From a virus (lineage: Duplodnaviria; Heunggongvirae; Uroviricota; Caudoviricetes), in the IMG/VR virus record IMGVR_UViG_2778261300_000001, positions 1 through 11,483 of that record: a DNA stretch of 11,483 nucleotides; one strand, given 5' to 3'. A program made the translations under genes and the position numbers. Below the pieces are notes generated by a model. It searched no databases and had not been told where the DNA came from. It worked only from the letters and a program-made list of their open reading frames with translations. This document shows, in pieces, positions 1 through 11,483 of the stretch (position 1 is the stretch's first letter; each line of letters begins with the position of its first letter).

Positions 1-143
1 TGTTTACGGGGTTTTTTACTGGTTGATACTGTTTTTGTCATGTGAGTCACCTCTGACTGAGAGTTTACTCACTTAGCTGCGTGTCCACTATTGCTGGGTA
101 AGATCAGATCCAGCCTTATCTGGAGGACGGCAAATGCTTTCGC

Positions 144-500
144 ATGGTGCTTAAACCGTGGCGCGAGAGACGCAGTCTTTCCCAGAATGCACTCAGCCAC
201 ATGTGGTACAGCGAAATCAGTGAATACCTCATCAGCAAGGGTAAAACGTTCGCTACTCCAGCTTGGGTAAAAGATGCTCTCAAACACACATATCTCGGTT
301 ATGAAACCAAAGACCTGGTTGATGTCGTAACCGGTGATATCACCACTATCCAGTCGTTACGCCATACCTCCGATCTTGATACCGGAGAGATGTATGTCTT
401 CCTGTGTAAGGTTGAAGCCTGGGCGATGAATATTGGTTGCCACCTGACTATTCCACAGAGCTGCGAGTTTCAGCTGCTGCGCGACAAGCAGGAGGCGTAA
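144..500 (+). CDS. ybcN: NinB/Orf-family protein (YbcN-like recombination / DNA base-flipping protein), 118 aa from ATG 144
   Basis: Translation contains RSLSQN..(L/M)W, which resembles the RSLDQNRKLW motif of lambda NinB. It sits immediately upstream of ninE and its stop (498-500) overlaps the ninE ATG as TAATG. The start is uncertain: the in-frame stop at 99-101 forbids any longer N-terminus, and the GGAGG at 123-127 is 16 nt from the ATG. Confidence 0.6.
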   Translation: MVLKPWRERRSLSQNALSHMWYSEISEYLISKGKTFATPAWVKDALKHTYLGYETKDLVDVVTGDITTIQSLRHTSDLDTGEMYVFLCKVEAWAMNIGCHLTIPQSCEFQLLRDKQEA

Positions 501-670
501 TGGCTACACCGCTTATTCGTGTCATGAACGGACACATCTACAGAGTACCAAATCGTCGTAAGCGTAAACCTGAGCTGAAGCCATCCGAAATACCAACACT
601 GCTCGGATATACCGCCAGCTTGGTTGATAAAAAATGGTTGCGACTGGCAGCAAGGAGGAGTCATGGCTGA
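500..670 (+). CDS. ninE: NinE-family protein, 56 aa
   Basis: [56 protein letters not shown] is basic and similar in length and C-terminal W-LRR-AR pattern to lambda NinE. GGAGG lies 4 nt upstream of the ATG at 500. The 77-aa ORF in the track (437..670) is an upstream extension of the same frame. Confidence 0.75.
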   Translation: MATPLIRVMNGHIYRVPNRRKRKPELKPSEIPTLLGYTASLVDKKWLRLAARRSHG

Positions 671-953
671 TTTGAGAAAAGCAGCGCGTGGTCGGGAATG
701 CCAGGTAAGAATCCCTGGCGTATGTAATGGCAACCCTGAAACGTCTGTACTGGCACATATCCGGCTGACTGGATTGTGCGGCACCGGTACGAAACCGCCA
801 GACCTGATTGCCACCATTGCATGTTCTGCCTGCCACGACGAAATCGACCGCCGCACGCATTTTGTTGACGCTGGATATGCAAAAGAATGCGCGCTGGAAG
901 GTATGGCGAGAACGCAGGTTATCTGGCTGAAAGAGGGGGTAATTAAGGCGTGA
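663..953 (+). CDS. ybcO: YbcO-like putative nuclease, 96 aa, Cys/His-rich
   Basis: [64 protein letters not shown]... matches the DLP12 YbcO protein as I remember it. AGGAGG precedes the ATG at 663, and the gene overlaps the ninE stop by 8 nt. Confidence 0.8.
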
Positions 954-1312
954 ATACTTACCACATCACACTACCCTGGCCGCCGAGCAATAACCGCTAC
1001 TACCGCCATAATCGAGGGCGCACGCACATCAGCGCAGAAGGGCAGGCATACCGCGATAACGTCGCCCGAATCATTAAAGGCTCAATGCTGGATATCGGTC
1101 TGGCTATGCCTGTGAAAATCCGCATTGAGTGCCACATGCCGGATCGCCGTCGCCGTGACCTGGATAATCTGCAAAAAGCCGCTTTTGACGCACTCACTAA
1201 AGCAGGTTTCTGGCTGGATGATGCTCAGGTCGTTGATTACCGTGTTGTGAAGATGCCTGTTACCAAAGGTGGGAGGCTGGAACTGACCATCACCGAAATG
1301 GGGAATGAATGA
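950..1312 (+). CDS. rusA: RusA Holliday-junction resolvase (crossover junction endodeoxyribonuclease), 120 aa, GTG start
   Basis: [26 protein letters not shown]...[55 protein letters not shown] is near-identical to E. coli RusA as I recall it. The start codon is GTG at 950, overlapping the ybcO stop as GTGA. Confidence 0.9.
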
Positions 1313-1449
1313 TGTTTGAGTTTTATATGGCAGAACTTCTTCGCCACCGCTGGGGGCATCTGCGCTTATATCGTTTCCCCGGTTCTGTTTTGACCGATTA
1401 CCGAATACTGAAGAATTACGCCAAAACCCTGACAGGAGCAGGAGTATGA
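1309..1449 (+). CDS. ylcG: Small protein YlcG-like, 46 aa (absent from the ORF track because it is short)
   Basis: The ATG at 1309 overlaps the rusA stop as ATGA. Translation is [46 protein letters not shown], with TGA at 1447-1449. Position between rusA and Q matches DLP12 ylcG. Confidence 0.6.
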
Positions 1450-1534
1450 AGTCAGAGATAACAATCAACTAATACTGTTTTGTTGATTTTTGCTTGTAAT
1501 TGGCGTTCTGGTCTGATTTTTGTGGAGTAAGTTG

Positions 1535-1918
1535 ATGCGTGATATTCAGATGGTTCTTGAGCGTTGGGGAGCGTGGGCGGCTAATAATCATGAAGATGTG
1601 ACCTGGTCGTCCATTGCCGCCGGTTTTAAGGGATTAATTACTTCAAAAGTAAAATCTCGCCCGCAATGTTGTGACGATGACGCGATGATCATTTGCGGGT
1701 GCATGGCCCGTCTGAAAAAGAACAACAGCGATTTGCACGATTTATTAGTAGATTATTATGTAGTCGGTATGACATTCATGTCACTGGCAGGTAAGCATGG
1801 CTGCTCTGATGGTTATATCGGGAAAAGGTTACAGAAGGCTGAGGGCATAATTGAAGGGATGTTAATGGCATTAGATATCCGGTTAGAGATGGATATCGTT
1901 GTTAATAACTCTAATTAA
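1535..1918 (+). CDS. quuD: Late-gene antitermination protein Q (QuuD-like), 127 aa
   Basis: [35 protein letters not shown]...[16 protein letters not shown] matches the DLP12 Q-like antiterminator. GGAG lies 7 nt upstream of the ATG at 1535. The track ORF from 1520 uses an upstream TTG. Confidence 0.85.
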
Positions 1919-1951
1919 TATGCCAATTGTTTACTAAAAATTATTAAAAAT

Positions 1952-1969
1952 GGGGCGTTGAGACGCCCC
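1952..1969 (-). terminator. Hairpin (7-bp GC-rich stem GGGGCGT/ACGCCCC, 4-nt loop) followed on the minus strand by a U-rich tract; likely distal terminator for nmpC
   Basis: Stem 1952-1958 pairs with 1963-1969. The plus strand has A-runs on both sides, so on the minus strand the hairpin is followed by AUUUUUAAUAAUUUUU. Confidence 0.5.
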
Positions 1970-2057
1970 CAAAAATAAAGGGTAATATATAACAGAAGGT
2001 TTATATAGTTAGAAGCAAGGTTGTGCTTCTAAAGGAAGTGGCTTGAGGGAGCCACTT

Positions 2058-2097
2058 ATATGTTGGGGAGGCAACGCCTCCCGCAACATATCTTTTT
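2058..2097. terminator. Strong intrinsic terminator hairpin (about 15 bp stem with a 1-nt bulge, loop AAC) plus CTTTTT on the plus strand; sits between the quuD 3' end and the nmpC 3' end and may act in both directions
   Basis: 2058-2072 (ATATGTTGGGGAGGC) pairs with 2076-2091 (GCCTCCCGCAACATAT), with T-run 2093-2097. A second 8-bp hairpin lies at 2036-2057 (AAGTGGCT/AGCCACTT). Confidence 0.65.
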
Positions 2098-2107
2098 CGT
2101 AATCAGA

Positions 2108-3205
2108 TTAGAACTGGTAAACCAGACCTACAGCAACGATGTCATCAGTGCTTACACTGAGTGCTTTAGTGAAGTCATTTTTGTCAAGCAGGTTGATTTT
2201 GTAATCAACGAAAGTAGACATATTTTTGTTGAAGTAATAGGTTGCACCTACATCAACATATTTGACTAAGTCCTGATCGCCCCATACTCCAAGATCCTTA
2301 CCTTTAGATTGCAGGTAAGCAACGGACGGACGCAGACCGAAATCGAACTGATATTGTGCAACAGCTTCGAAGTTTTGGGCTTTATTAGCAACGAAGTGAT
2401 CAGCAAATACAGTCATATTCTGGGTTTCAGAATAGGTAGTGGCCAGGTAAATGTTGTTAGCGTCATATTTCAGACCTGCGGCCCAAACTTCTGCATTTTT
2501 ACCGGAAGCAAATACTTCAGGAAGAACTTTCCCTGCATTAACTTGAGTGTCGGTACGATCAGATTTCGCATAAGTTGCACCGATACCGAATCCTTCGTAT
2601 TCATAGGTAGCAGAGAAACCGAAGCCATCACCGTTACCTTCAGTGTAGTTATCGAAATCGCTACGATCGTTTTTGCCTTGGTACTGAGCAGCAAAGTTCA
2701 GACCATCAACCAGACCAAAGAAGTCGTTGTTACGATAGGTTGCAACACCAGTTGCACGTTGAGTCATGAACACGTCGGTTTGAGTCCAAGTGTCACCACC
2801 GAATTCTGGCAGGACGTCAGTCCACGCACCGATGTCGTATGCTACACCGTAGTTACGGCCGTAATCGATGGAGCCGTAGTCACCGAATTTCAGGCCAGCG
2901 AAGGCAAGACGGGTTTTATCTTTGGAGGAACCTTGAGATTCAGCGCGGTTGCCTTTGAATTCATATTCCCACTGACCGAAACCAGTCAGTTGATCGTTGA
3001 TTTGGGTTTCACCTTTGAAGCCAAGACGGGCATAAGTAGTATCACCATCATCTGCATCATTGGAGGAGAAGTAGTGCTTAGCATTAACTTTCCCGTACAG
3101 ATCCAGCTTGTTACTGTCTTTATTATAAATTTCAGCTGCCTGAGCAGACATCGCCATCAGTACTGATGCAGCTACAGCAGAAATTGCCACTGTTAATTTT
3201 TTCAT
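2108..3205 (-). CDS. nmpC: General bacterial porin of the OmpC/OmpD/NmpC family, 365 aa including signal peptide; prophage moron
   Basis: Signal peptide [23 protein letters not shown], then [17 protein letters not shown]... and C-terminal ...VAVGLVYQF, the typical porin beta-barrel terminus ending in F. I take the ATG at 3203-3205 as the start rather than the upstream extension in the track. The reading frame is uninterrupted. Confidence 0.9.
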
Positions 3206-3632
3206 CGTGAGCCCTTTTTTTGAACTATTATTAAAAAATGATGTCACTGCGCGATAAATATTCATCTAATCAATGTGATTATTTCAAGATGTAAGTTTTG
3301 GTTTCTCGTTTGATTTGTGAAGTAGATCTCTATTTTTATCTGAACTTTTTTCTATCGAATCCTATTCATGGCTCTTGGCTGAATAAAAATAAATCTATTA
3401 GCCAATTTATATTAACGGCTGTTATTTATAAGCGCTCTATAATTTGAAGGTTCAATTTAAACCGGCTAAAAATAACACTGGAAATTATTTGTTGGTTATT
3501 TGTTGAGATTTGCTTATGTATTTGTAGTGGTGTTTTCAATACTCGGTAGCATTCTCGCAAATATCATTTAGTGGTTTACGTACGTAAAAAATTGGTTATG
3601 CTGTTAAGAGTGGTTACTTCGTCACACAGCTT
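3206..3632. promoter_or_regulatory. AT-rich intergenic region: nmpC promoter and 5' leader on the minus strand, probably also late-promoter / essD upstream signals on the plus strand
   Basis: About 570 bp without a credible ORF between the divergent nmpC start and essD. It is AT-rich and contains a tandem 11-bp repeat at 3485-3506. Confidence 0.5.
3485..3506. repeat. Tandem direct repeat, 2 x 11 bp (TTATTTGTTGG / TTATTTGTTGA)
   Basis: Read directly from the sequence at 3485-3495 and 3496-3506. Confidence 0.6.
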
Positions 3633-3665
3633 AAACCCGCCGTCGAGCGGGTTTTTCCATTTTTT
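3633..3665 (+). terminator. Intrinsic terminator (8-bp stem AAACCCGC/GCGGGTTT, 6-nt loop, T-runs); candidate tR'-like terminator upstream of the lysis cassette
   Basis: Stem 3633-3640 pairs with 3647-3654, followed by TTTTT CCA TTTTTT. It lies about 110 bp upstream of the essD start. Confidence 0.6.
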
Positions 3666-3777
3666 GAGTCTCGATATTAGCTGATAACCCAATACCTGAG
3701 TTATTCACTGACTCCGAGTCTGTTACGTTTCGTAGTATTCCCTCAATTTACACCCGCTTTGTCTGCGAGGTGGGGTT

Positions 3778-3993
3778 ATGAAATCCATGGATAAGTTAAC
3801 AACGGGTGTCGCCTATGGCACCTCAGCAGGTAGTGCCGGGTACTGGTTTTTACAGCTGCTAGATAAAGTCACGCCCTCACAGTGGGCGGCAATTGGAGTG
3901 CTGGGTAGCCTGGTATTTGGCCTGCTGACGTACCTGACAAACCTTTATTTCAAGATTAAAGAAGATAAGCGCAAGGCTGCGAGAGGTGGATAA
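3778..3993 (+). CDS. essD: Phage-21-type pinholin S (holin/antiholin with dual-start motif MKSM), 71 aa
   Basis: [71 protein letters not shown] matches the S21/EssD pinholin: two transmembrane helices, Met1 and Met4 dual starts, charged C-terminus. RBS is GAGGTGGGG. Confidence 0.9.
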
Positions 3994-4490
3994 TGCCTCC
4001 ATCATTACGAAAAGCTGTTGCTGCTGCTATTGGTGGCGGGGCTATTGCTATAGCATCTGTGTTAATCACTGGCCCAAGTGGTAACGATGGTCTGGAAGGT
4101 GTGAGACATAATCCTTACAAAGACATAGTTGGTGTATGGACTGTATGTTACGGGCATACAGGAAAAGACATCATGCTCGGTAAAACGTATACCAAAGCAG
4201 AATGCAAAGCACTCTTGAATAAAGACCTTGCCACTGTCGCCAGACAAATTAACCCGTACATCAAAGTCGATATACCGGAAACAACGCGCGGCGCTCTTTA
4301 CTCATTCGTTTACAACGTGGGTGCTGGCAATTTCAGAACATCGACGCTTCTTCGCAAAATAAACCAGGGCGATATCAAAGGCGCATGTGATCAGCTACGT
4401 CGCTGGACATATGCTGGCGGTAAGCAATGGAAAGGTCTCATGACTCGTCGTGAGATTGAGCGTGAAATTTGTTTGTGGGGTCAGCAATGA
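3993..4490 (+). CDS. rrrD: SAR endolysin (lysozyme with N-terminal signal-anchor-release domain), 165 aa
   Basis: N-terminal SAR-like hydrophobic, Gly/Ala-rich segment [18 protein letters not shown], followed by a lysozyme-like domain. The start overlaps the essD stop as TAATG. Matches R21/RrrD. Confidence 0.9.
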
Positions 4491-4951
4491 ACAGAGTAAC
4501 CGCGATTATCTCCGCTCTGGTTATCTGCATCATCGTCTGCCTGTCATGGGCTGTTAATCATTACCGTGATAACGCAATCGCCTACAAAGAGCAGCGCGAT
4601 AACAAGGCCAGTGAACTGGAGAAGGCGAACGCCACCATCGCTGACATGCGGAAGCGTCAACGTGATGTAGCAGAACTCGACGCCAGATACACAAAGGAGC
4701 TTGCTGATGCTAACGCGACTATCGAAAGTCTTCGTGCTGATGTTTCTGCTGGGCGTAAGTGGCTGCGCGTCAAAGCTGTCTGTCCAGACATGCATAAAAT
4801 CACCGCCGCCTCCGGCGTGGATGATGGCACCAGCCCCAGACTTACTGACACCGCTCAACGGGATTATTTCACCCTTAGAAAGCGGATTGAAACCAGTGAT
4901 AAAATGATCCGAGGCTTGCAGCAATACATTCGCACGCAGTGTGTAAGATGA
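4487..4951 (+). CDS. rzpD: Rz-type i-spanin (inner-membrane spanin subunit), 154 aa
   Basis: [26 protein letters not shown]... is an N-terminal transmembrane helix followed by a charged, coiled-coil-like periplasmic domain. The start overlaps the rrrD stop as ATGA. Confidence 0.85.
4707..4907 (+). CDS. rzoD: Rz1-type o-spanin lipoprotein, 66 aa, embedded in the +1 frame of rzpD
   Basis: [23 protein letters not shown]... has a lipobox (VSGC) and a proline-rich mature part ([26 protein letters not shown]) typical of Rz1. GGAG lies 8 nt upstream of the ATG at 4707. It is wholly nested within Rz. Confidence 0.75.
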
Positions 4952-5331
4952 GCAATCTTTGCTAATTAGCCATGAAATAGATAAATATCAGGCCAACGAT
5001 GATTAGTGCCAGGCATCCTAATTGGTCAGAATGGCTGGCATTTGATCGTCTTGCTCTTCTTGCAGTTGATTGGACAGCCCTCTGTCCTCGACTTCCTCTT
5101 GGCATTCCTCTCATTTATTCTCTCTCAACATTGATATTGAACTGACAGATGATAATTATTTCATGAAAGTGGTATCTCGTTGATTTGATTACGCTACATA
5201 GTCGCCGGATTTTCGCATTTATCGGCATCGGGCGGTGCAAAATTGGCATAATCGAAACGTAGAGTTTTTGGCTGACAACAGCATTAGCGGTCACCCGGAG
5301 AGTGTTGTGAACATGTTAATTACATGACGCT

Positions 5332-5652
5332 TTAGATGCATCGACATTTGATGATGCTTGTCAGACCTGTCATTTTCTTTGCTTCATTTTCAACATTGAG
5401 GAAGTTGGTTGAGCATATTTTTTGATAATCTCCAGTTGTGAATCCTGTTTTATCGATCTTGCGTTTCAAGGGATTAATCGTTTTGCAAGATGCTCTATGG
5501 ATTCTGGTAAAGCGTTCGTCAGATTTATTACCTTTACCTCTGGTTCGCTTCAATGCATTGACAACATATCCGTCTGGATTATCGCCAAGCCAATTACGAT
5601 AGTCTGATTCACTCTCAGTCTGAAGGTCACTTCTGAATACCTTTATGGACAT
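5332..5652 (-). CDS. Hypothetical protein, 106 aa, basic, 4 Cys (possible zinc ribbon); moron in the bor position between the spanins and cos
   Basis: Minus-strand ORF with GGAG 7 nt upstream of the ATG at 5652 (the track's 112-aa version starts at an upstream ATG at 5670). Translation: MSIKVFRSDLQTESESDYRNWLGDNPDGYVVNALKRTRGKGNKSDERFTRIHRASCKTINPLKRKIDKTGFTTGDYQKICSTNFLNVENEAKKMTGLTSIIKCRCI. It lies in an AT-rich island opposite to the flanking phage genes. I cannot place it in a family. Confidence 0.5.
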   Translation of the reverse strand: MSIKVFRSDLQTESESDYRNWLGDNPDGYVVNALKRTRGKGNKSDERFTRIHRASCKTINPLKRKIDKTGFTTGDYQKICSTNFLNVENEAKKMTGLTSIIKCRCI

Positions 5653-5796
5653 GAAGATACTCCTGTGCATTTATGGTACGAAGAAATAGCAAAAGTATTT
5701 TTACCGTAAATTGCGAATCTACAAAAGCAAAACAATGCGTAATATCAGAGTGAATATTCTGCCTTTAATGTGGGTCCTTCTGATGACCTGAGCTCT

Positions 5797-5817
5797 CACG
5801 GGGCGGGAGCGTCGCGG
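5797..5817. other. cos-like sequence (possible degenerate cosN) about 170 bp upstream of the Nu1-type start codon
   Basis: CACGGGGCGGGAGCGTCGCGG resembles the lambda cosN region ACGGGGCGGCGACCTCGCGGG: 17 of 21 positions match by eye, and 8 of 12 within the cohesive-end core. Its position relative to the Nu1-like start mirrors lambda (cosN about 190 bp upstream of Nu1). Confidence 0.35.
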
Positions 5818-5897
5818 AAAAAGGCTAGTTTTTGCATTTTTATCGGCCACCATCATCTTTGCATCTTATTGATTATTAATGGTTATTTGTTTTTTGT

Positions 5898-5927
5898 ATG
5901 TCGAATTGAGCGGTTTTTGTTCGACAT
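5898..5927. repeat. 8-bp inverted repeat ATGTCGAA ... TTCGACAT with 14-bp spacer, between the cos-like site and the Nu1-type start (candidate terminase-binding cosB-type element)
   Basis: Read from the sequence: 5898-5905 and 5920-5927 are exact reverse complements. A function as a protein-binding site is inference. Confidence 0.4.
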
Positions 5928-5986
5928 CGAACGCGTTTTCTTAAAGTTGTTCGCACGATGCATGTTTAAAGCTCTCCGGAGGAAAT

Positions 5987-7366
5987 ATGGATCATGAGTT
6001 GAAAAACTTGGTGCTGAATATTAATCAACTGGCGGCTTTATCTGGTCTGCACCGCCAGACTGTCGTGGCAAGACTGAAAAACATTCGTCCCGCTGGTGGA
6101 CATGACAAACTCAAGCTATATCGGTTGACCGATATTCTGACTGAATTTATGGGGTTACCACCGCCGGTTGCTGAGGGCGAAATGGATCCACATGAACGCA
6201 AAGCCTGGTATCAGTCTGAACGTGAGCGTCTTAAGTTCGAACAGGAAACGGCACAACTCATTCCGGCCAGTGATGTCAGACGGGAGTTTGCCATCTGGGC
6301 AAAAGCGGTCGTGCAGGTGCTGGAGACATTACCGGATATTCTGGAACGTGACTGCGGCCTGCAGCCTGCCGCTGTGAGCCGTGTTCAGTCCATTATTGAT
6401 GATCTGCGCGATCAGATAACCGAATCCCATCTCGGCAAGGAGCTGCTGGAAAAAGTCGAGCTAACGGAGGATAACGCCAGCAAACTGGAGGAGTTTTCGA
6501 AAGAGTGGCAGGACGCTAACGATAAGTGGAATGCTATGTGGGGCGTCAAAATTGAGCAGACCAAAGACGGCAAACATTATGTCGCGGGTATTGGCCTCAG
6601 CATGGAGGACACGGAAGGAGGCAAGCTGAGCCAGTTTCTGGTTGCCGCTAACCGTATCGCGTTTATTGACCCGGCAAACGGGAATGAAACGCCGATGTTT
6701 GTGGCGCAGGGCAATCAGATATTTATGAACGACGTGTTCCTGAAGCGCCTGGCGGCCCCGACCATTACCAGTGGTGGAAATCCACCGGCATTTTCCCTGA
6801 CATCAGACGGAAAGCTGACCGCTAAAAATGCGGATATCAGTGGCAGTGTGAATGCGAACGCCGGGACGCTCAACAATGTCACGGTAAATGAAAACTGTAC
6901 GATTAAGGGCATGCTGGAGGCGACCCAGGTCAGAGGGGATTTCGTTAAAGCTGTATCAAAAGCCTTCCCGAAAAAAGTCGGTACGTGGGGTAACACGGAA
7001 ACACCAAACGGTACGGTTACAGTCACCATCAGCGATGATCATAACTTTGACCGCCAGATTATTATTCCGCCCATTATTTTTAACGGTATAGCGTATGACG
7101 ATCCGGGGAGCGGAAATAACCCAGGAGGCACGCGATACACGGGTTATGGTTTTGAAGTTCGCAAAAACGGCGTATTAATCGCATCCAGAGAAACTAAAGG
7201 GGCCATTCCCGGTAGTTACAGTGCAGTTATTGATATGCCTAGTGGTGGTGGTAGCGTCACTCTGGAGTTTAAGATTTTCCAGAAAGGCAATCAGGGGGCA
7301 GGCAATATCACCGACTGTACGGTGATTGTGACCAAAAAAGCGGCTTCCGGCATCAGTATTCGTTGA
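5987..7366 (+). CDS. In-frame chimeric ORF (459 aa): small-terminase (Nu1-type, HTH) N-terminal region fused to the C-terminal receptor-binding region of tail tip / host-specificity protein J; deletion scar of the morphogenesis region
   Basis: N-terminus [32 protein letters not shown]... is HTH-like and sits where Nu1 would be, downstream of the cos-like site with GGAGG RBS. From about residue 185 onward ([86 protein letters not shown]...) it is near-identical to the lambda J C-terminal region as I remember it. It is followed by lom, as J is in lambda. Confidence 0.8.
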
Positions 7367-7388
7367 AATATTTATAACCCCAATAAAT

Positions 7389-7415
7389 GGCGTCAGGAAT
7401 GACGCCTTTTTTATT
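7389..7415 (+). terminator. Intrinsic terminator after the J-derived ORF (stem GGCGTCA/TGACGCC, loop GGAA, T6)
   Basis: 7389-7395 pairs with 7400-7406, followed by TTTTTTATT. Confidence 0.65.
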
Positions 7416-7436
7416 GCAGAAAAGCGAGAGGTAATT

Positions 7437-8036
7437 ATGCGTAAAGTTTGTGCAGCCATTTTGTCCGCAGCCATTTGTCTGGCCGTATCCGGTGCGCCTG
7501 CATGGGCGTCTGAACATCAGTCCACGCTGAGCGCGGGGTATCTTCATGCCCGGACCAACGTTCCCGGCAGTGATGATCTGAACGGGATTAACGTGAAATA
7601 CCGTTATGAGTTTACGGATACGCTGGGGCTGGTGACGTCATTCAGCTATGCAGGAGACAAGAATCGCCAGCTGACCCATTACAGCGATACCCGCTGGCAT
7701 GAAGATTCCGTGCGTAACCGCTGGTTCAGCGTAATGGCGGGGCCGTCTGTGCGCGTGAATGAATGGTTCAGCGCGTATGCGATGGCGGGTGTGGCTTACA
7801 GCCGTGTGTCGACTTTCTCCGGGGATTATCTCCGCGTAACTGACAACAAGGGGAAAACGCACGACGTGCTGACCGGAAGTGATGACGGTCGCCACAGCAA
7901 CACGTCTCTGGCGTGGGGGGCTGGCGTGCAGTTTAACCCGGCCGAATCCGTGGCCATTGATATTGCTTATGAAGGCTCCGGCAGTGGCGACTGGCGCACT
8001 GACGGTTTCATCGTGGGTGTCGGTTATAAGTTCTGA
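7437..8036 (+). CDS. lom: Lom outer-membrane protein (Ail/Lom/OmpX family beta-barrel), 199 aa with signal peptide
   Basis: Signal peptide MRKVCAAILSAAICLAVSGAPAWA, and a C-terminal ...GFIVGVGYKF beta-barrel terminus. It sits between J and stf as in lambda. RBS is AGAGG. Confidence 0.9.
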   Translation: MRKVCAAILSAAICLAVSGAPAWASEHQSTLSAGYLHARTNVPGSDDLNGINVKYRYEFTDTLGLVTSFSYAGDKNRQLTHYSDTRWHEDSVRNRWFSVMAGPSVRVNEWFSAYAMAGVAYSRVSTFSGDYLRVTDNKGKTHDVLTGSDDGRHSNTSLAWGAGVQFNPAESVAIDIAYEGSGSGDWRTDGFIVGVGYKF

Positions 8037-8062
8037 TTAGCCAGGTAACACAGTGTTATGAC

Positions 8063-8090
8063 AGCCCGCCGGTTCAGGCGGGCTTTTTTG
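8063..8090 (+). terminator. Intrinsic terminator after lom (8-bp stem AGCCCGCC/GGCGGGCT, 6-nt loop, T6)
   Basis: 8063-8070 pairs with 8077-8084, followed by TTTTTT. Confidence 0.65.
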
Positions 8091-8100
8091 TGGGGTGAAT

Positions 8101-11100
8101 ATGGCAGTAAAGATTTCAGGTGTACTGAAAGATGGCACAGGAAAACCGGTACAGAACTGCACAATCCAGCTGAAAGCAAAACGTAACAGCACCACGGTGG
8201 TGGTGAACACGCTGGCCTCAGAAAATCCGGATGAAGCCGGGCGTTACAGTATGGACGTTGAGTACGGTCAGTACAGCGTTATTCTGTTGGTGGAAGGATT
8301 CCCGCCGTCACATGCCGGGACCATCACCGTGTATGAAGATTCCCGACCCGGTACGCTGAATGATTTTCTCGGTGCCATGACGGAGGATGATGCCCGTCCG
8401 GAGGCACTGCGCCGCTTTGAACTGATGGTGGAAGAGGTGGCGCGTAACGCGTCCGTGGTGGCGCAGAACACAGCAGCCGCGAAGAAGTCAGCCAGCGATG
8501 CCAGCACATCAGCCCGTGAGGCGGCAACCCGTGCGACTGATGCTGCAGGCTCAGCACGCGCAGCCAGTACGTCAGCCGGACAGGCCGCGTCGTCGGCTCA
8601 GTCAGCGACTTCCAGCGCAGGAACGGCATCAACAAAGGCCACTGAAGCATCAAAAAGTGCTGCCGCTGCAGAGTCCTCAAAAAGCGCGGCAGCTACCAGT
8701 GCCAGTGCCGCGAAAACGTCAGAAACGAATGCGGCAGCGTCACAAAAATCTGCAGCCACTTCTGCATCCGCCGCGACCACAAAGGCGTCAGAAGCTGCCA
8801 CCTCAGCCCGGGATGCGGCGGCCTCAAAAGAGGCAGCGAAATCATCAGAAACGAACGCATCATCAAGCGCCAGTAGTGCCGCTTCCTCGGCAACGGCGGC
8901 AGGAAATTCCGCGAAGGCGGCAAAGACGTCCGAGACGAACGCCAGGTCTTCTGAAACGGCAGCGGGACAGAGTGCCTCAGCTGCGGCAGGCTCAAAAACA
9001 GCGGCTGCGTCGTCTGCCAGTGCAGCGTCAACAAGTGCCGGGCAGGCCTCAGCCAGTGCTAGCGCCGCCGGAAAATCGGCAGAAAGCGCCGCATCGTCCG
9101 CTTCAACAGCCACAACGAAGGCTGGCGAAGCCACTGAACAGGCCAGTGCAGCAGCGAGGGCTGCTTCCGCAGCGAAGACATCCGAAACGAACGCGAAAGC
9201 GTCGGAAACCAGCGCAGAATCCTCAAAAACGGCTGCCGCATCGTCCGCCAGTTCGGCGGCGTCATCGGCATCATCTGCGTCTGCTTCAAAAGATGAGGCG
9301 ACCAGACAGGCGTCAGCAGCAAAGGGCAGCGCCACGACGGCATCCACGAAGGCGACAGAGGCTGCTGGCAGTGCGACGGCGGCAGCACAGAGCAAAAGTA
9401 CGGCAGAATCCGCAGCAACGCGCGCTGAGACAGCGGCAAAACGTGCAGAGGATATTGCATCCGCCGTGGCGCTTGAGGATGCGAGCACGACGAAAAAGGG
9501 GGTAGTACAGCTCAGCAGTGCGACCAACAGCACGTCTGAAACGCTGGCGGCAACGCCAAAGGCAGTAAAAGCAGCCTATGACAATGCAGAGAAACGTCTG
9601 CAGAAAGACCAGAACGGTGCTGATATTCCCGACAAGGACCGCTTCCTGAGTAACATTAATGTTTACAGCAAAGGTGAAGTGGATCAGAAAAAGGGGATGC
9701 GATACGTTGTGGTAAATGCCCCGGCGGGTGTCCAGGAAGGTAAATATTATCCGTTAGTGATAAAAAGGAATGACAGCCATCGGGCATCCCGCGTTGTCAT
9801 TTCAACGCCAAGTCGCTCAGCTAATCACAGAATGAATAATTGTGAGTTTAATGGTTTTGTTTGCGCAGGCGGCTGGACGGACCGGGGTAGCTATGCCTGT
9901 GGTATGTTCTGGGCTTATTCATCATCGGAACGCGCTATTCATTCCATTCTGATGAGTAATAAAGGCGATACCGTAGACAGCGTATTCTATATAGAAGGTG
10001 GGGCATTTCCCGTAGAGGTCTTTTTAGAAGAAGGTCTCTCCGTTACTGCACCTGCTTCTGATTATATTGTTGCTGAAACGACTTATAAATTTGGCGCAAC
10101 TGATCCTTATTCTGAATCAGTTGCGGTAAATTTAATTTTAGATTTTAAACAAGGTAATGGATTTTATAGTTCGTATCCTGTTTTGAGTAAGTCAGACATT
10201 AGCGGGAATAAGATTTACGCTAATGATGAAGTTATTGTCCGTAGTCAGAACGCGTTAAGGATGATTGCAGGTGATTACGGTGTCATATGGCGAAATGATG
10301 GAGCAAATACTTACTTGCTCATGACTGATAAAGGCGACCAGTACGGTGGCTGGAACGGTCTTCGACCATTTGCAGTAAATAACGCAACAGGTGAAGTGAC
10401 GATCAATACACCACTTAATTCTCCTAAGGGGATTAAGGGAAATTCTGATACAGCTACGAAACTTCAGACAGCAATAAAAATATCTGGTGTTTCGTTTGAT
10501 GGTTCTACTGATATCACTTTAACCGCTGCGCATGTTGCTGCTTTTGCCAGAAGAGCAACGGATACGTATGCCGATGCGGATGGGGGCGTTCCCTGGAATG
10601 CCGAATCAGGCGCTTACAATGTCACCCGCTCTGGCAACAGCTATATTCTGGTTAACTTCTATACCGGAGTCGGAAGTTGCCGGACCTTGCAGATGAAGGC
10701 GCATTACAGAAATGGTGGTCTGTTCTACCGTTCTTCAAGAGACGGTTATGGTTTTGAGGAAGACTGGGCAGAAGTTTATACCTCGAAAAATCTTCCACCA
10801 GAAAGCTACCCAGTCGGCGCACCAATCCCGTGGCCATCAGATACCGTTCCGTCTGGTTATGCCCTGATGCAGGGGCAGACTTTTGACAAATCTGCTTACC
10901 CGAAACTTGCAGCCGCTTATCCGTCAGGCGTGATCCCTGATATGCGTGGCTGGACGATTAAGGGCAAGCCCGCCAGTGGTCGTGCCGTATTGTCTCAGGA
11001 ACAGGACGGCATTAAATCGCACACCCACAGCGCCAGCGCATCCAGTACGGATTTGGGTACGAAAACCACATCGTCGTTTGATTACGGCACTAAATCCACG

Positions 11101-11483
11101 AATAACACCGGGGCGCATACCCATAGTATTAGCGGGACAGCAAATAGTGCCGGTGCGCACCAACACAAGAGTTCCGGTGCATTTGGTGGCACGAACACGA
11201 GCATTTTTCCTAATGGTTATACTGCGATTTCAAATCTAAGCGCGGGGATTATGAGCACAACAAGCGGTACTGGCCAGACTCGTAATGCAGGGAAGACATC
11301 ATCAGATGGTGCTCATACCCACTCACTGTCCGGCACTGCTGCAAGCGCAGGTGCACACGCACATACTGTCGGTATTGGTGCTCATACGCACTCCGTTGCG
11401 ATTGGTTCACATGGACACACCATCACCGTTAACGCTGCTGGTAACGCGGAAAACACCGTCAAAAACATCGCATTTAACTATAT
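8101..11483 (+). CDS. stf: Side tail fiber protein Stf, 3'-partial (at least 1127 codons; continues past the window end)
   Basis: N-terminus [80 protein letters not shown] is the conserved lambda Stf / StfR N-terminus. I translated the frame by hand from 8101 to 11483 and met no stop. It contains a long Ala/Ser/Thr-rich repeat region and C-terminal GAHTHS-type His repeats. It is missing from the ORF track, which appears to list only complete ORFs ending in a stop. Confidence 0.9.
8460..9480 (+). repeat. Low-complexity Ala/Ser/Thr-rich coding repeat region inside stf, with a recurring 23-nt unit encoding AK(T/S)SETNA
   Basis: Units GCGAAAACGTCAGAAACGAATGC (8709), GCGAAATCATCAGAAACGAACGC (8836), GCAAAGACGTCCGAGACGAACGC (8920) and GCGAAGACATCCGAAACGAACGC (9182). 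GCN-rich codon composition generates long shadow ORFs in other frames. Confidence 0.7.

Follow-up and report, generated by a model that had tools for sequence, protein, structure and literature searches.

The locus described here poses the question of what a small AT-rich gene, oriented against all of its neighbours, does between the lysis genes and the cos site of a lambdoid prophage. The gene encodes a 106-amino acid (aa) protein and lies in an 11,483-nucleotide stretch of viral DNA (IMG/VR virus record IMGVR_UViG_2778261300_000001, positions 1 to 11,483), referred to throughout as the window, which is a defective lambdoid prophage of Escherichia coli. Comparison with its relatives shows that it is a genuine, conserved cargo gene carried on three kinds of mobile element, and profile comparison establishes homology of its product to the N-terminal domains of nuclease fusions, together with a conserved pattern of putative metal ligands. 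By analogy with those fusions the protein probably recognises DNA in conflicts between mobile elements. The particular reading that we favour, to which we give a probability of roughly 35%, is that the gene is a moron with its own promoter whose product would be solely a zinc-stabilised DNA-recognition module acting in conflicts between elements, with exclusion or defence likelier than counter-defence.

Properties and conservation of the 106-aa gene

The first-pass annotation, made from the DNA sequence, had described an antisense gene in an AT-rich island at the position of lambda bor, with a good ribosome-binding site and a basic product containing four cysteines, and every part of this description holds. 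The gene is antisense to every annotated neighbour and, lying between Rz/Rz1 and cosN, it shares both the position of lambda bor and its orientation, antisense to the late operon. The start codon at 5652 is preceded at a spacing of 7 nt by AGGAG, is common to the alignments of all 23 homologues, and is the one used in RefSeq, where the product is likewise 106 aa; an alternative in-frame ATG at 5670, which would give a 112-aa product, is used by no homologue, nor by RefSeq. The GC content of the gene is 38.6% and that of the stretch 4952-5986 is 40.3%, compared with 48.9% for the lysis genes and 50.4% for the next open reading frame (ORF). The product contains 21 lysines and arginines versus 12 aspartates and glutamates, has an isoelectric point (pI) of 9.66, and carries cysteines at positions 56, 80, 103 and 105 and a lone histidine at position 52. 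Its N-terminus (MSIKVFRSDLQTESE / MSIKVFRSDLQTESESDY) is hydrophilic as judged by reading, with the first cysteine only at position 56, and the protein is predicted to be of a cytoplasmic type with neither a signal peptide nor a lipobox; it is small and easy to test, and looks soluble.

An identical protein (RefSeq WP_000025003.1, 'hypothetical protein', 100% identity) is annotated in the intact prophage of strain NT1F31, and 54 of the 5426 complete E. coli genomes, enterotoxigenic E. coli (ETEC) H10407 among them, carry the gene at an identity of at least 98%. Among 5.8 billion proteins searched there are 24 clusters of homologues, nearly all of exactly 106 aa and 58-69% identical, from Klebsiella, Raoultella, Leclercia, Citrobacter, Cedecea and Pseudescherichia. 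Homologues 48-69% identical are without exception mobile-element cargo, located on prophages, on 4.5-kb MOBQ plasmids and on an integrase island, and their hosts include Klebsiella, Raoultella, Leclercia, Citrobacter and Brenneria. The pairwise ratios of nonsynonymous to synonymous substitution (dN/dS) are 0.08-0.19, with the least saturated, and thus best-conditioned, pair having a dN of 0.094 and a dS of 0.607. The family as a whole is under purifying selection, despite a few frameshifted or truncated database copies (P0033, P0035, P0037, P0038), and the possibility raised earlier that related prophages might reveal a degenerate, non-conserved frame is not borne out, with both length and frame kept in the 24 clusters.

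A wider domain family and its nuclease fusions

The 106-aa protein has no match in Pfam (E≤0.1), PHROGs or NCBIfam, no significant match among PDB sequences, profiles included, and a literature search for the RefSeq accessions of the family gave no hits. A wider family emerges when 1.84 billion representative proteins are searched exhaustively with HMMER and the family profile. This gave 247 representative clusters at E≤1e-3; 149 of the 247 were listed, and the signature and length counts given here are taken among these. The family is defined by a domain some 95 residues long that bears the signature H-x3-C ... K-x-C ... C-x(1-2)-C, which is present and collinear in 124 of the 149 relatives among the matches listed. 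Its members are spread over Proteobacteria, Actinomycetota, Planctomycetota, Chloroflexota and other phyla, nearly all of them form singleton clusters, and the source names shown are all 'hypothetical protein'. A set of 133 distant domains has a median pI of 8.7, and hhalign relates the enterobacterial family to this set with a probability of 99.95%, a value that is partly circular because the distant set was picked with the same profile, the whole-library E-values being independent of it.

The architectures of the longer relatives provide the strongest functional clue. Among the matches listed, 91 of 149 are stand-alone proteins of 130 aa or fewer and 55 are at least 150 aa long; 54 long relatives were scanned, and these include 15 with HNH, eight with HNH_2, two with HNH_5 and two with NOV_C (PD-(D/E)XK) domains. 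In the nuclease fusions, put at about one third of the matches listed, the family domain is the N-terminal part. Single long relatives are fused to a Ser/Thr kinase, an MqsA-like helix-turn-helix (HTH) domain or a YgjP peptidase, and several relatives start with a membrane anchor or repeat the domain in tandem, two to three times (tandem repeats for example in P0042 and P0031). Fourteen relatives match the PADLOC Type IV restriction model PDLC03656, only at positions ~176-260 of its 277 and through their own C-terminal part, and residues 135-220 of P0159 are 52% identical to residues 174-259 of EcoKMcrA, its HNH domain. The modification-dependent nucleases that have been characterised use their N-terminal domain to sense DNA or a modification of it (PMC6765204, PMC7145662) and, since these enzymes are of like architecture, the new domain may be read as a targeting or recognition module.

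A weaker relationship is seen with DUF6233 (PF19746), to which nine of 61 members give collinear sub-threshold hits of 12-17 bits (best 12.5-17.4) against a cut-off of 27.6. The HxxxC segment falls on profile positions 1-34 and a C-terminal CxxCxP segment on positions 37-55, but the model spans only 59 positions, is itself uncharacterised, and gives no hit with the 106-aa protein. DUF6233 is not mentioned in the literature searched.

Predicted fold and candidate metal ligands

AlphaFold2 predicts that the 106-aa protein folds into a compact alpha/beta domain, in which five short strands are combined with three helices. With the 24-sequence alignment the mean predicted local distance difference test score (pLDDT) is 86.5 and the predicted template modelling score (pTM) 0.80; with a 61-sequence alignment of the wider family these rise to 93.0 and 0.85, and the secondary structure is identical in both models. 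The predicted strands are at residues 4-6, 29-34, 50-53 and 76-81, with a further short strand at the C-terminus, and the helices at 14-24, 43-48 and 84-95. The model of pLDDT 93 is without a fold neighbour.

Across 61 diverse members the invariant or near-invariant residues are F6, Y18, W21, G28, V30, N32, H52, C56, T72, Y76, K78, C80, C103 and C105; among those of the signature, H52, C56, K78 and C103 are invariant and C80 and C105 nearly so. Five of them, arranged as H52-x3-C56, C80 and C103-x-C105, are candidate metal ligands. In the model His52 is in strand 3 with Cys56 just after it, Cys80 ends strand 4, and Cys103 and Cys105 are C-terminal, and from the conservation of the five residues it is plausible that they form a metal staple. 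The first-pass annotation had suggested a small nucleic-acid-binding or zinc-ribbon protein, and the two halves of this suggestion fare differently. A classical zinc ribbon has two CxxC-type knuckles on beta-hairpins and a small three-stranded sheet, whereas the candidate ligands here follow an HxxxC...C...CxC pattern spread over a 106-residue alpha/beta fold, and no zinc-ribbon model in Pfam is hit, such that this class can be set aside. A metal site as such fits well, the cysteines together with His52 being part of the invariant core, and a role with nucleic acids gains indirect support, by analogy, from the fusion of the domain to HNH and PD-(D/E)XK nucleases elsewhere.

Genomic contexts of the homologues

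In prophages the homologues sit between the lysis genes and terminase small subunit (terS) genes of three unrelated types, Nu1, DUF1441 and Terminase_2. In E. coli H10407 the gene is beside a lambda-type Nu1 terminase and lambda-like head genes, and in E. coli NT1F31 beside a DUF1441 terminase and HK97-like head genes. In the Klebsiella, Raoultella and Leclercia prophages, as well as in Klebsiella phage ST846-OXA48phi9.2, the homologue is divergent from a Terminase_2 small subunit gene, its start codon being about 46 bp from that of terS; the Klebsiella-type loci have head modules of two types. The Citrobacter homologue occupies the same accessory region and adjoins DUF6979 and Rha genes, not terS. 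Outside of prophages, a 48.5% identical homologue directly follows mobA on 4.5-kb Col156/MOBQ plasmids of Salmonella and E. coli, and a 51% identical homologue is located 9 bp downstream of a P4-type integrase gene in Brenneria roseae (L031, 2490-6690). Next after the Brenneria homologue come an IS200 transposase gene, a YebF-like ORF and a fusion of ferredoxin to colicin M, which is a bacteriocin of the pectocin type. No partner gene is conserved across E. coli, the Klebsiella-type prophages, the plasmids and the island, and the unit is therefore a single gene, moving among three kinds of mobile element. A link to a phage DNA methyltransferase was considered and rejected, a methyltransferase gene being present in NT1F31, H10407 and two Klebsiella-type loci and absent from the window and the other loci.

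Promoter-like sites are evident directly upstream of the Klebsiella, Raoultella and Leclercia homologues. The Klebsiella-type copies have a perfect extended -10 element (TGTTATAAT) and the Leclercia-type copies have TTGCCA-16-TATATT; both have a GGAG ribosome-binding site, and in both the promoter-like site overlaps the terS start codon. In the E. coli copy, weak candidates can be picked out by eye between 5653 and 5800, for example TTGTAG-16-AAAAAT. Among other features of these loci, we note a Tad2-like gene (PF11195, the anti-Thoeris family) on the late-gene strand of the same lysis-to-terS region in L003-L006 (~6766-7044). The 5' part of the Terminase_2 gene contains clustered TGCGCA / CTGCGCAG palindromic repeats in Raoultella (L003, 5769-5818) and Leclercia (L007, 5778-5814), some 180-230 bp from the start of the homologue, and these could be a pac site or a protein-binding array.

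Distant stand-alone members share no neighbour across the seven contexts compared. Some of these members are in islands of a defence type: one follows a Type I restriction-modification system and is beside an integrase and Abi_C, and another is beside toxin-antitoxin clusters. On a Vibrio plasmid, an HNH fusion is part of an integron-like cassette array that also contains toxin-antitoxin genes. An odd spot for a cargo gene is that of a 96-aa stand-alone member from a bioreactor metagenome (L017, 5001-5291), which has the L30 gene of a ribosomal protein operon on one side and the L15 gene on the other.

A proposed role in conflicts between mobile elements

Morons are transcribed as units of their own, often in the lysogenic state (PMC3594210, PMC7067206), and the 106-aa gene resembles them in lying between modules, in its GC content of 38.6% versus 49-50% for its flanks, and in its sporadic presence in 54 of 5426 genomes; the promoter-like sites of the homologous loci agree with this, although the E. 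coli copy has no convincing one. The interval between the lysis and packaging genes is, moreover, an established site of accessory and defence genes. A plausible scenario is that the protein would be expressed in the lysogen without depending on late transcription, that it would bind DNA, possibly at a modified or otherwise foreign feature, and that, lacking a nuclease, it would obstruct phage or plasmid DNA entering the cell, either by occupying that DNA or through a recruited host factor, and so act as a nuclease-free exclusion or defence factor. Zinc binding we infer from the conserved ligands, DNA binding from the fusions, and lysogen expression and the direction of defence from orientation and location. 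Exclusion or defence in the lysogen is favoured because the gene shares its antisense orientation and its slot with morons expressed in the lysogen (PMC3594210, PMC7067206), and because a proven defence gene fills the same slot in phi80.

Several observations weigh against this reading. DNA binding is proposed by analogy of domain architecture, and the kinase, HTH, YgjP and membrane-anchor fusions could mean that the domain senses a protein or a small molecule instead of DNA; the hhalign probability that ties the enterobacterial family to the distant domains has the circular component noted above. The homologue in Leclercia has a pI of 6.6 and is not basic, and a scan of the minus strand upstream of the E. 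coli copy found no consensus sigma-70 promoter. Other distant stand-alone members have uninformative contexts, including a ribosomal operon and metabolic genes. Searches of PADLOC-DB v2 with the 106-aa protein gave no match at E≤0.1, and no characterised homologue was found; together with the conservation of the gene and the empty Pfam, PHROGs, NCBIfam and PDB searches, these results also uphold the earlier view of it as an uncharacterised accessory gene.

A broader proposition, which we put forward tentatively, is that the protein is the stand-alone form of an unrecognised and phylogenetically wide zinc-dependent reader of DNA or DNA modification, the fold of which would be absent from the PDB. 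This reader would serve as the targeting module of McrA-type and PD-(D/E)XK Type IV-like nucleases, and its free form either as an exclusion factor or as an anti-restriction shield or decoy.

Alternative explanations

Counter-defence is the strongest of the alternatives, although on balance we consider it unlikely. Here the free domain would shield the DNA of its own element, or would act as a dominant-negative decoy against host nucleases with such a sensor, as an anti-restriction protein made upon DNA entry. The 106-aa gene is the last of the right arm and points inward, only 149 nt separating its start from the right cohesive end. Lambda packages from the Nu1 end and its right end enters the cell first, and the constitutive type of promoter seen in the homologous loci would permit immediate expression. 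This argument is kept for counter-defence only, because it is valid for cos phages and not for pac phages, which have no fixed leading end, or for plasmids; on the MOBQ plasmids the gene adjoins mobA and, by analogy with other mobilisable plasmids, would be late-entering. Carriage on mobilisable plasmids and an integrative island fits with establishment in new hosts, the Tad2-like anti-Thoeris gene of the Klebsiella and Raoultella prophages is in the same region, and a domain common to restriction-type nucleases is what a decoy would have. However, the antisense orientation is typical of lysogen-expressed morons and not of early lytic genes, and these searches turned up no E. coli or Klebsiella nuclease bearing the domain.

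There is a smaller chance that the protein is a DNA-binding regulator of its own element, concerned with cos or pac recognition, terminase expression or relaxase function. The gene adjoins cos in E. coli, mobA on the plasmids and the integrase gene in Brenneria, and the Klebsiella-type gene is so close to the divergent terS that its promoter overlaps the terS start. From one element to the next the neighbours come from unrelated families (Nu1, DUF1441, Terminase_2, MobA and integrase), which makes a specific partnership unlikely, and in Citrobacter the upstream neighbours are DUF6979 and Rha genes in place of terS. Module boundaries are also generic insertion points for morons, and the gene is intact and identical in the present prophage even though all of the head and tail genes have been lost.

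A toxin or addiction-type function is less probable again. It could involve a second small ORF (50 aa) that is on the same strand as the 106-aa gene and co-inherited with it, and that has an arginine-rich N-terminus and a C-terminal hydrophobic helix. Five of its six polymorphic sites among E. coli variants are synonymous, which suggests that it encodes a real small membrane protein, and some distant homologues of the 106-aa protein are located among toxin-antitoxin genes. The 50-aa ORF has no hits in family libraries or phage genomes; it is seen only in the E. coli island and is absent beside the homologues of all other genera, so it is outside of the conserved unit, which is a single gene. 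No likeness was found to any toxin or antitoxin model, and the gene is stably carried alone on the 4.5-kb plasmids. The regulator and toxin explanations are thus disfavoured because the neighbours are unrelated between elements and the 50-aa ORF is confined to E. coli. Finally, that the frame is spurious or a decaying, functionless remnant, as its lack of a family assignment, its residence in a defective prophage and the occasional frameshifted or truncated database copies might suggest, is refuted by the low dN/dS, the retention of a 106-codon length at about 60% identity across genera, the confidently predicted fold and the invariant core residues.

Organization of the prophage

The features of the window are listed in Table 1.

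Table 1. Coordinates of the 106-aa gene, its signals and the other features of the 11,483-nucleotide window.
Feature	Position	Strand	Remarks
NinG-like ORF, then RusA	left part of window, upstream of Q
Antiterminator Q	1520-1918
Porin moron	2108-3265	-	Porin_1, OmpC/NmpC-like; antisense between Q and holin
Holin	3778-3993
Lysozyme	3993-4490
Rz/Rz1	4469-4951
AT-rich island with the 106-aa gene	between Rz/Rz1 and cosN		39-40% GC; follows Rz/Rz1
Unannotated 380-bp stretch	4952-5331	.	left portion of the AT-rich island; co-inherited with the 106-aa gene
Candidate small gene, 50 aa	4962-5114	-	MRGMPRGSRGQRAVQSTARRARRSNASHSDQLGCLALIIVGLIFIYFMAN; unannotated, same strand as the 106-aa gene
106-aa protein coding sequence	5332-5652	-	stop codon 5332-5334; from ORF listing; single domain
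AT-rich leader/promoter region, 148 bp	5653-5800	-	between gene start and right cohesive end
Shine-Dalgarno sequence AGGAG	5660-5664	-	7 nt before ATG at 5652; read directly from the sequence
cosQ-like stretch	5772-5800		GGGTCCTTCTGATGACCTGAGCTCTCACG; directly before cosN
Predicted cosN	5801-5812	.	12-nt cohesive end GGGCGGGAGCGT; from alignment of 5700-5995 to the lambda cos junction
Fused terS-J ORF	5987-7366	+	in-frame join of two gene parts
lom	7437-8036
Side-tail-fibre (Stf-like) gene	~8101 to 11483 and beyond window end	+

The predicted cos site coincides with a mosaic junction. Up to cosN, ETEC H10407 has the identical sequence; beyond it, a lambda-type cosB and Nu1 follow, and one group of E. 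coli matches stops at about 5817. The end of the H10407 identity exactly at cosN indicates that the exchange of right- and left-arm modules occurred at the cohesive-end site, and that the 106-aa gene therefore belongs to the right-arm (lysis) module. The 380-bp stretch between Rz/Rz1 and the gene is without an annotated feature, and the number of complete E. coli genomes that contain it, 54, equals the number with the gene itself.

To the other side of cos, residues 1-146 of the fused ORF correspond to a DUF1441-type small terminase and the C-terminal ~310 residues to the C-terminus of the tail-tip protein J (Phage_Tail_Tip and Ig_GpJ_C domains). As terS is joined in frame to the end of J, all of the intervening head and tail genes have been deleted and the prophage is defective. 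Two ORFs further to the right, at 8498-9505 (plus strand) and 8598-9533 (minus strand), are shadow frames over a GC-rich Ala/Ser-repeat region of the Stf-like gene and are not genes. A second moron island is present in the same prophage, where a very AT-rich stretch (3150-3750; 30-37% GC) follows the porin gene. An Rfam scan of the window gave no matches to non-coding RNAs.

Comparison with known systems

A single-gene moron in the lysis-packaging hotspot is already familiar, and it is the family, the domain and the fold that are undescribed in the resources queried; the connection with Type IV-like nuclease fusions seems to be new. Lambda Bor is the closest parallel in location, with the same slot between Rz and cos, the same orientation antisense to the late operon, and a similar size (97 aa versus 106 aa). 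The two proteins are not homologous, however: BLASTP gives no alignment, there is no hit to Bor or to any other Pfam family, and the 106-aa protein has no lipoprotein signal.

TaiEcA of phi80 is an experimentally proven single-gene antisense defence moron that acts by inhibiting tail assembly (He et al. 2024, PMC11364771), and members of the Tai family likewise occur on phages and satellites (PMC11364771). It occupies the same lysis-packaging slot, such that location is shared and family membership is not. Taking TaiEcA (phi80 orf63) as the 204-aa minus-strand ORF of the phi80 record, an assignment of ours made by position, hhalign gives a probability of 0.1%, and the neighbouring 99-aa ORF, the other minus-strand ORF of the phi80 accessory region, gives no alignment. 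A further difference is that the 106-aa gene is not accompanied by an overlapping counter-gene like Ati. If the favoured reading is correct, a candidate single-gene conflict factor is added to the lambdoid hotspot that harbours Bor and Tai, and one that occurs in pathogens such as ETEC H10407.

A more complex relationship is seen with EcoKMcrA and its kin. The Type IV HNH enzymes have varied N-terminal specificity domains, including NEco, SRA, PUA, SBD and winged-helix sensors (PMC7145662, PMC6765204, PMC7461809, PMC11037411), and in P0159, P0045, P0088 and P0132 the family domain takes the place of NEco, N-terminal to an McrA-type HNH domain. It does so without being a version of NEco, the family profile being unrelated to the N-terminal domain of EcoKMcrA (residues 1-140). 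The 106-aa protein differs from the McrA-like enzymes in having no HNH or other nuclease domain recognised by Pfam or PADLOC, and there is no adjacent nuclease gene in the window, in NT1F31 or in the Klebsiella-type loci. Should the proposed role prove true, the comparison delimits a domain family not covered by Pfam, NCBIfam, PHROGs, PADLOC or solved structures, and provides a handle on dozens of unannotated nuclease fusions that resemble new Type IV restriction enzymes. The 106-aa protein is homologous to the N-terminal domains of the McrA-HNH fusions and may by analogy share their recognition role, and a recognition domain operating without its nuclease would be an unusual mechanism, for exclusion and counter-defence alike.

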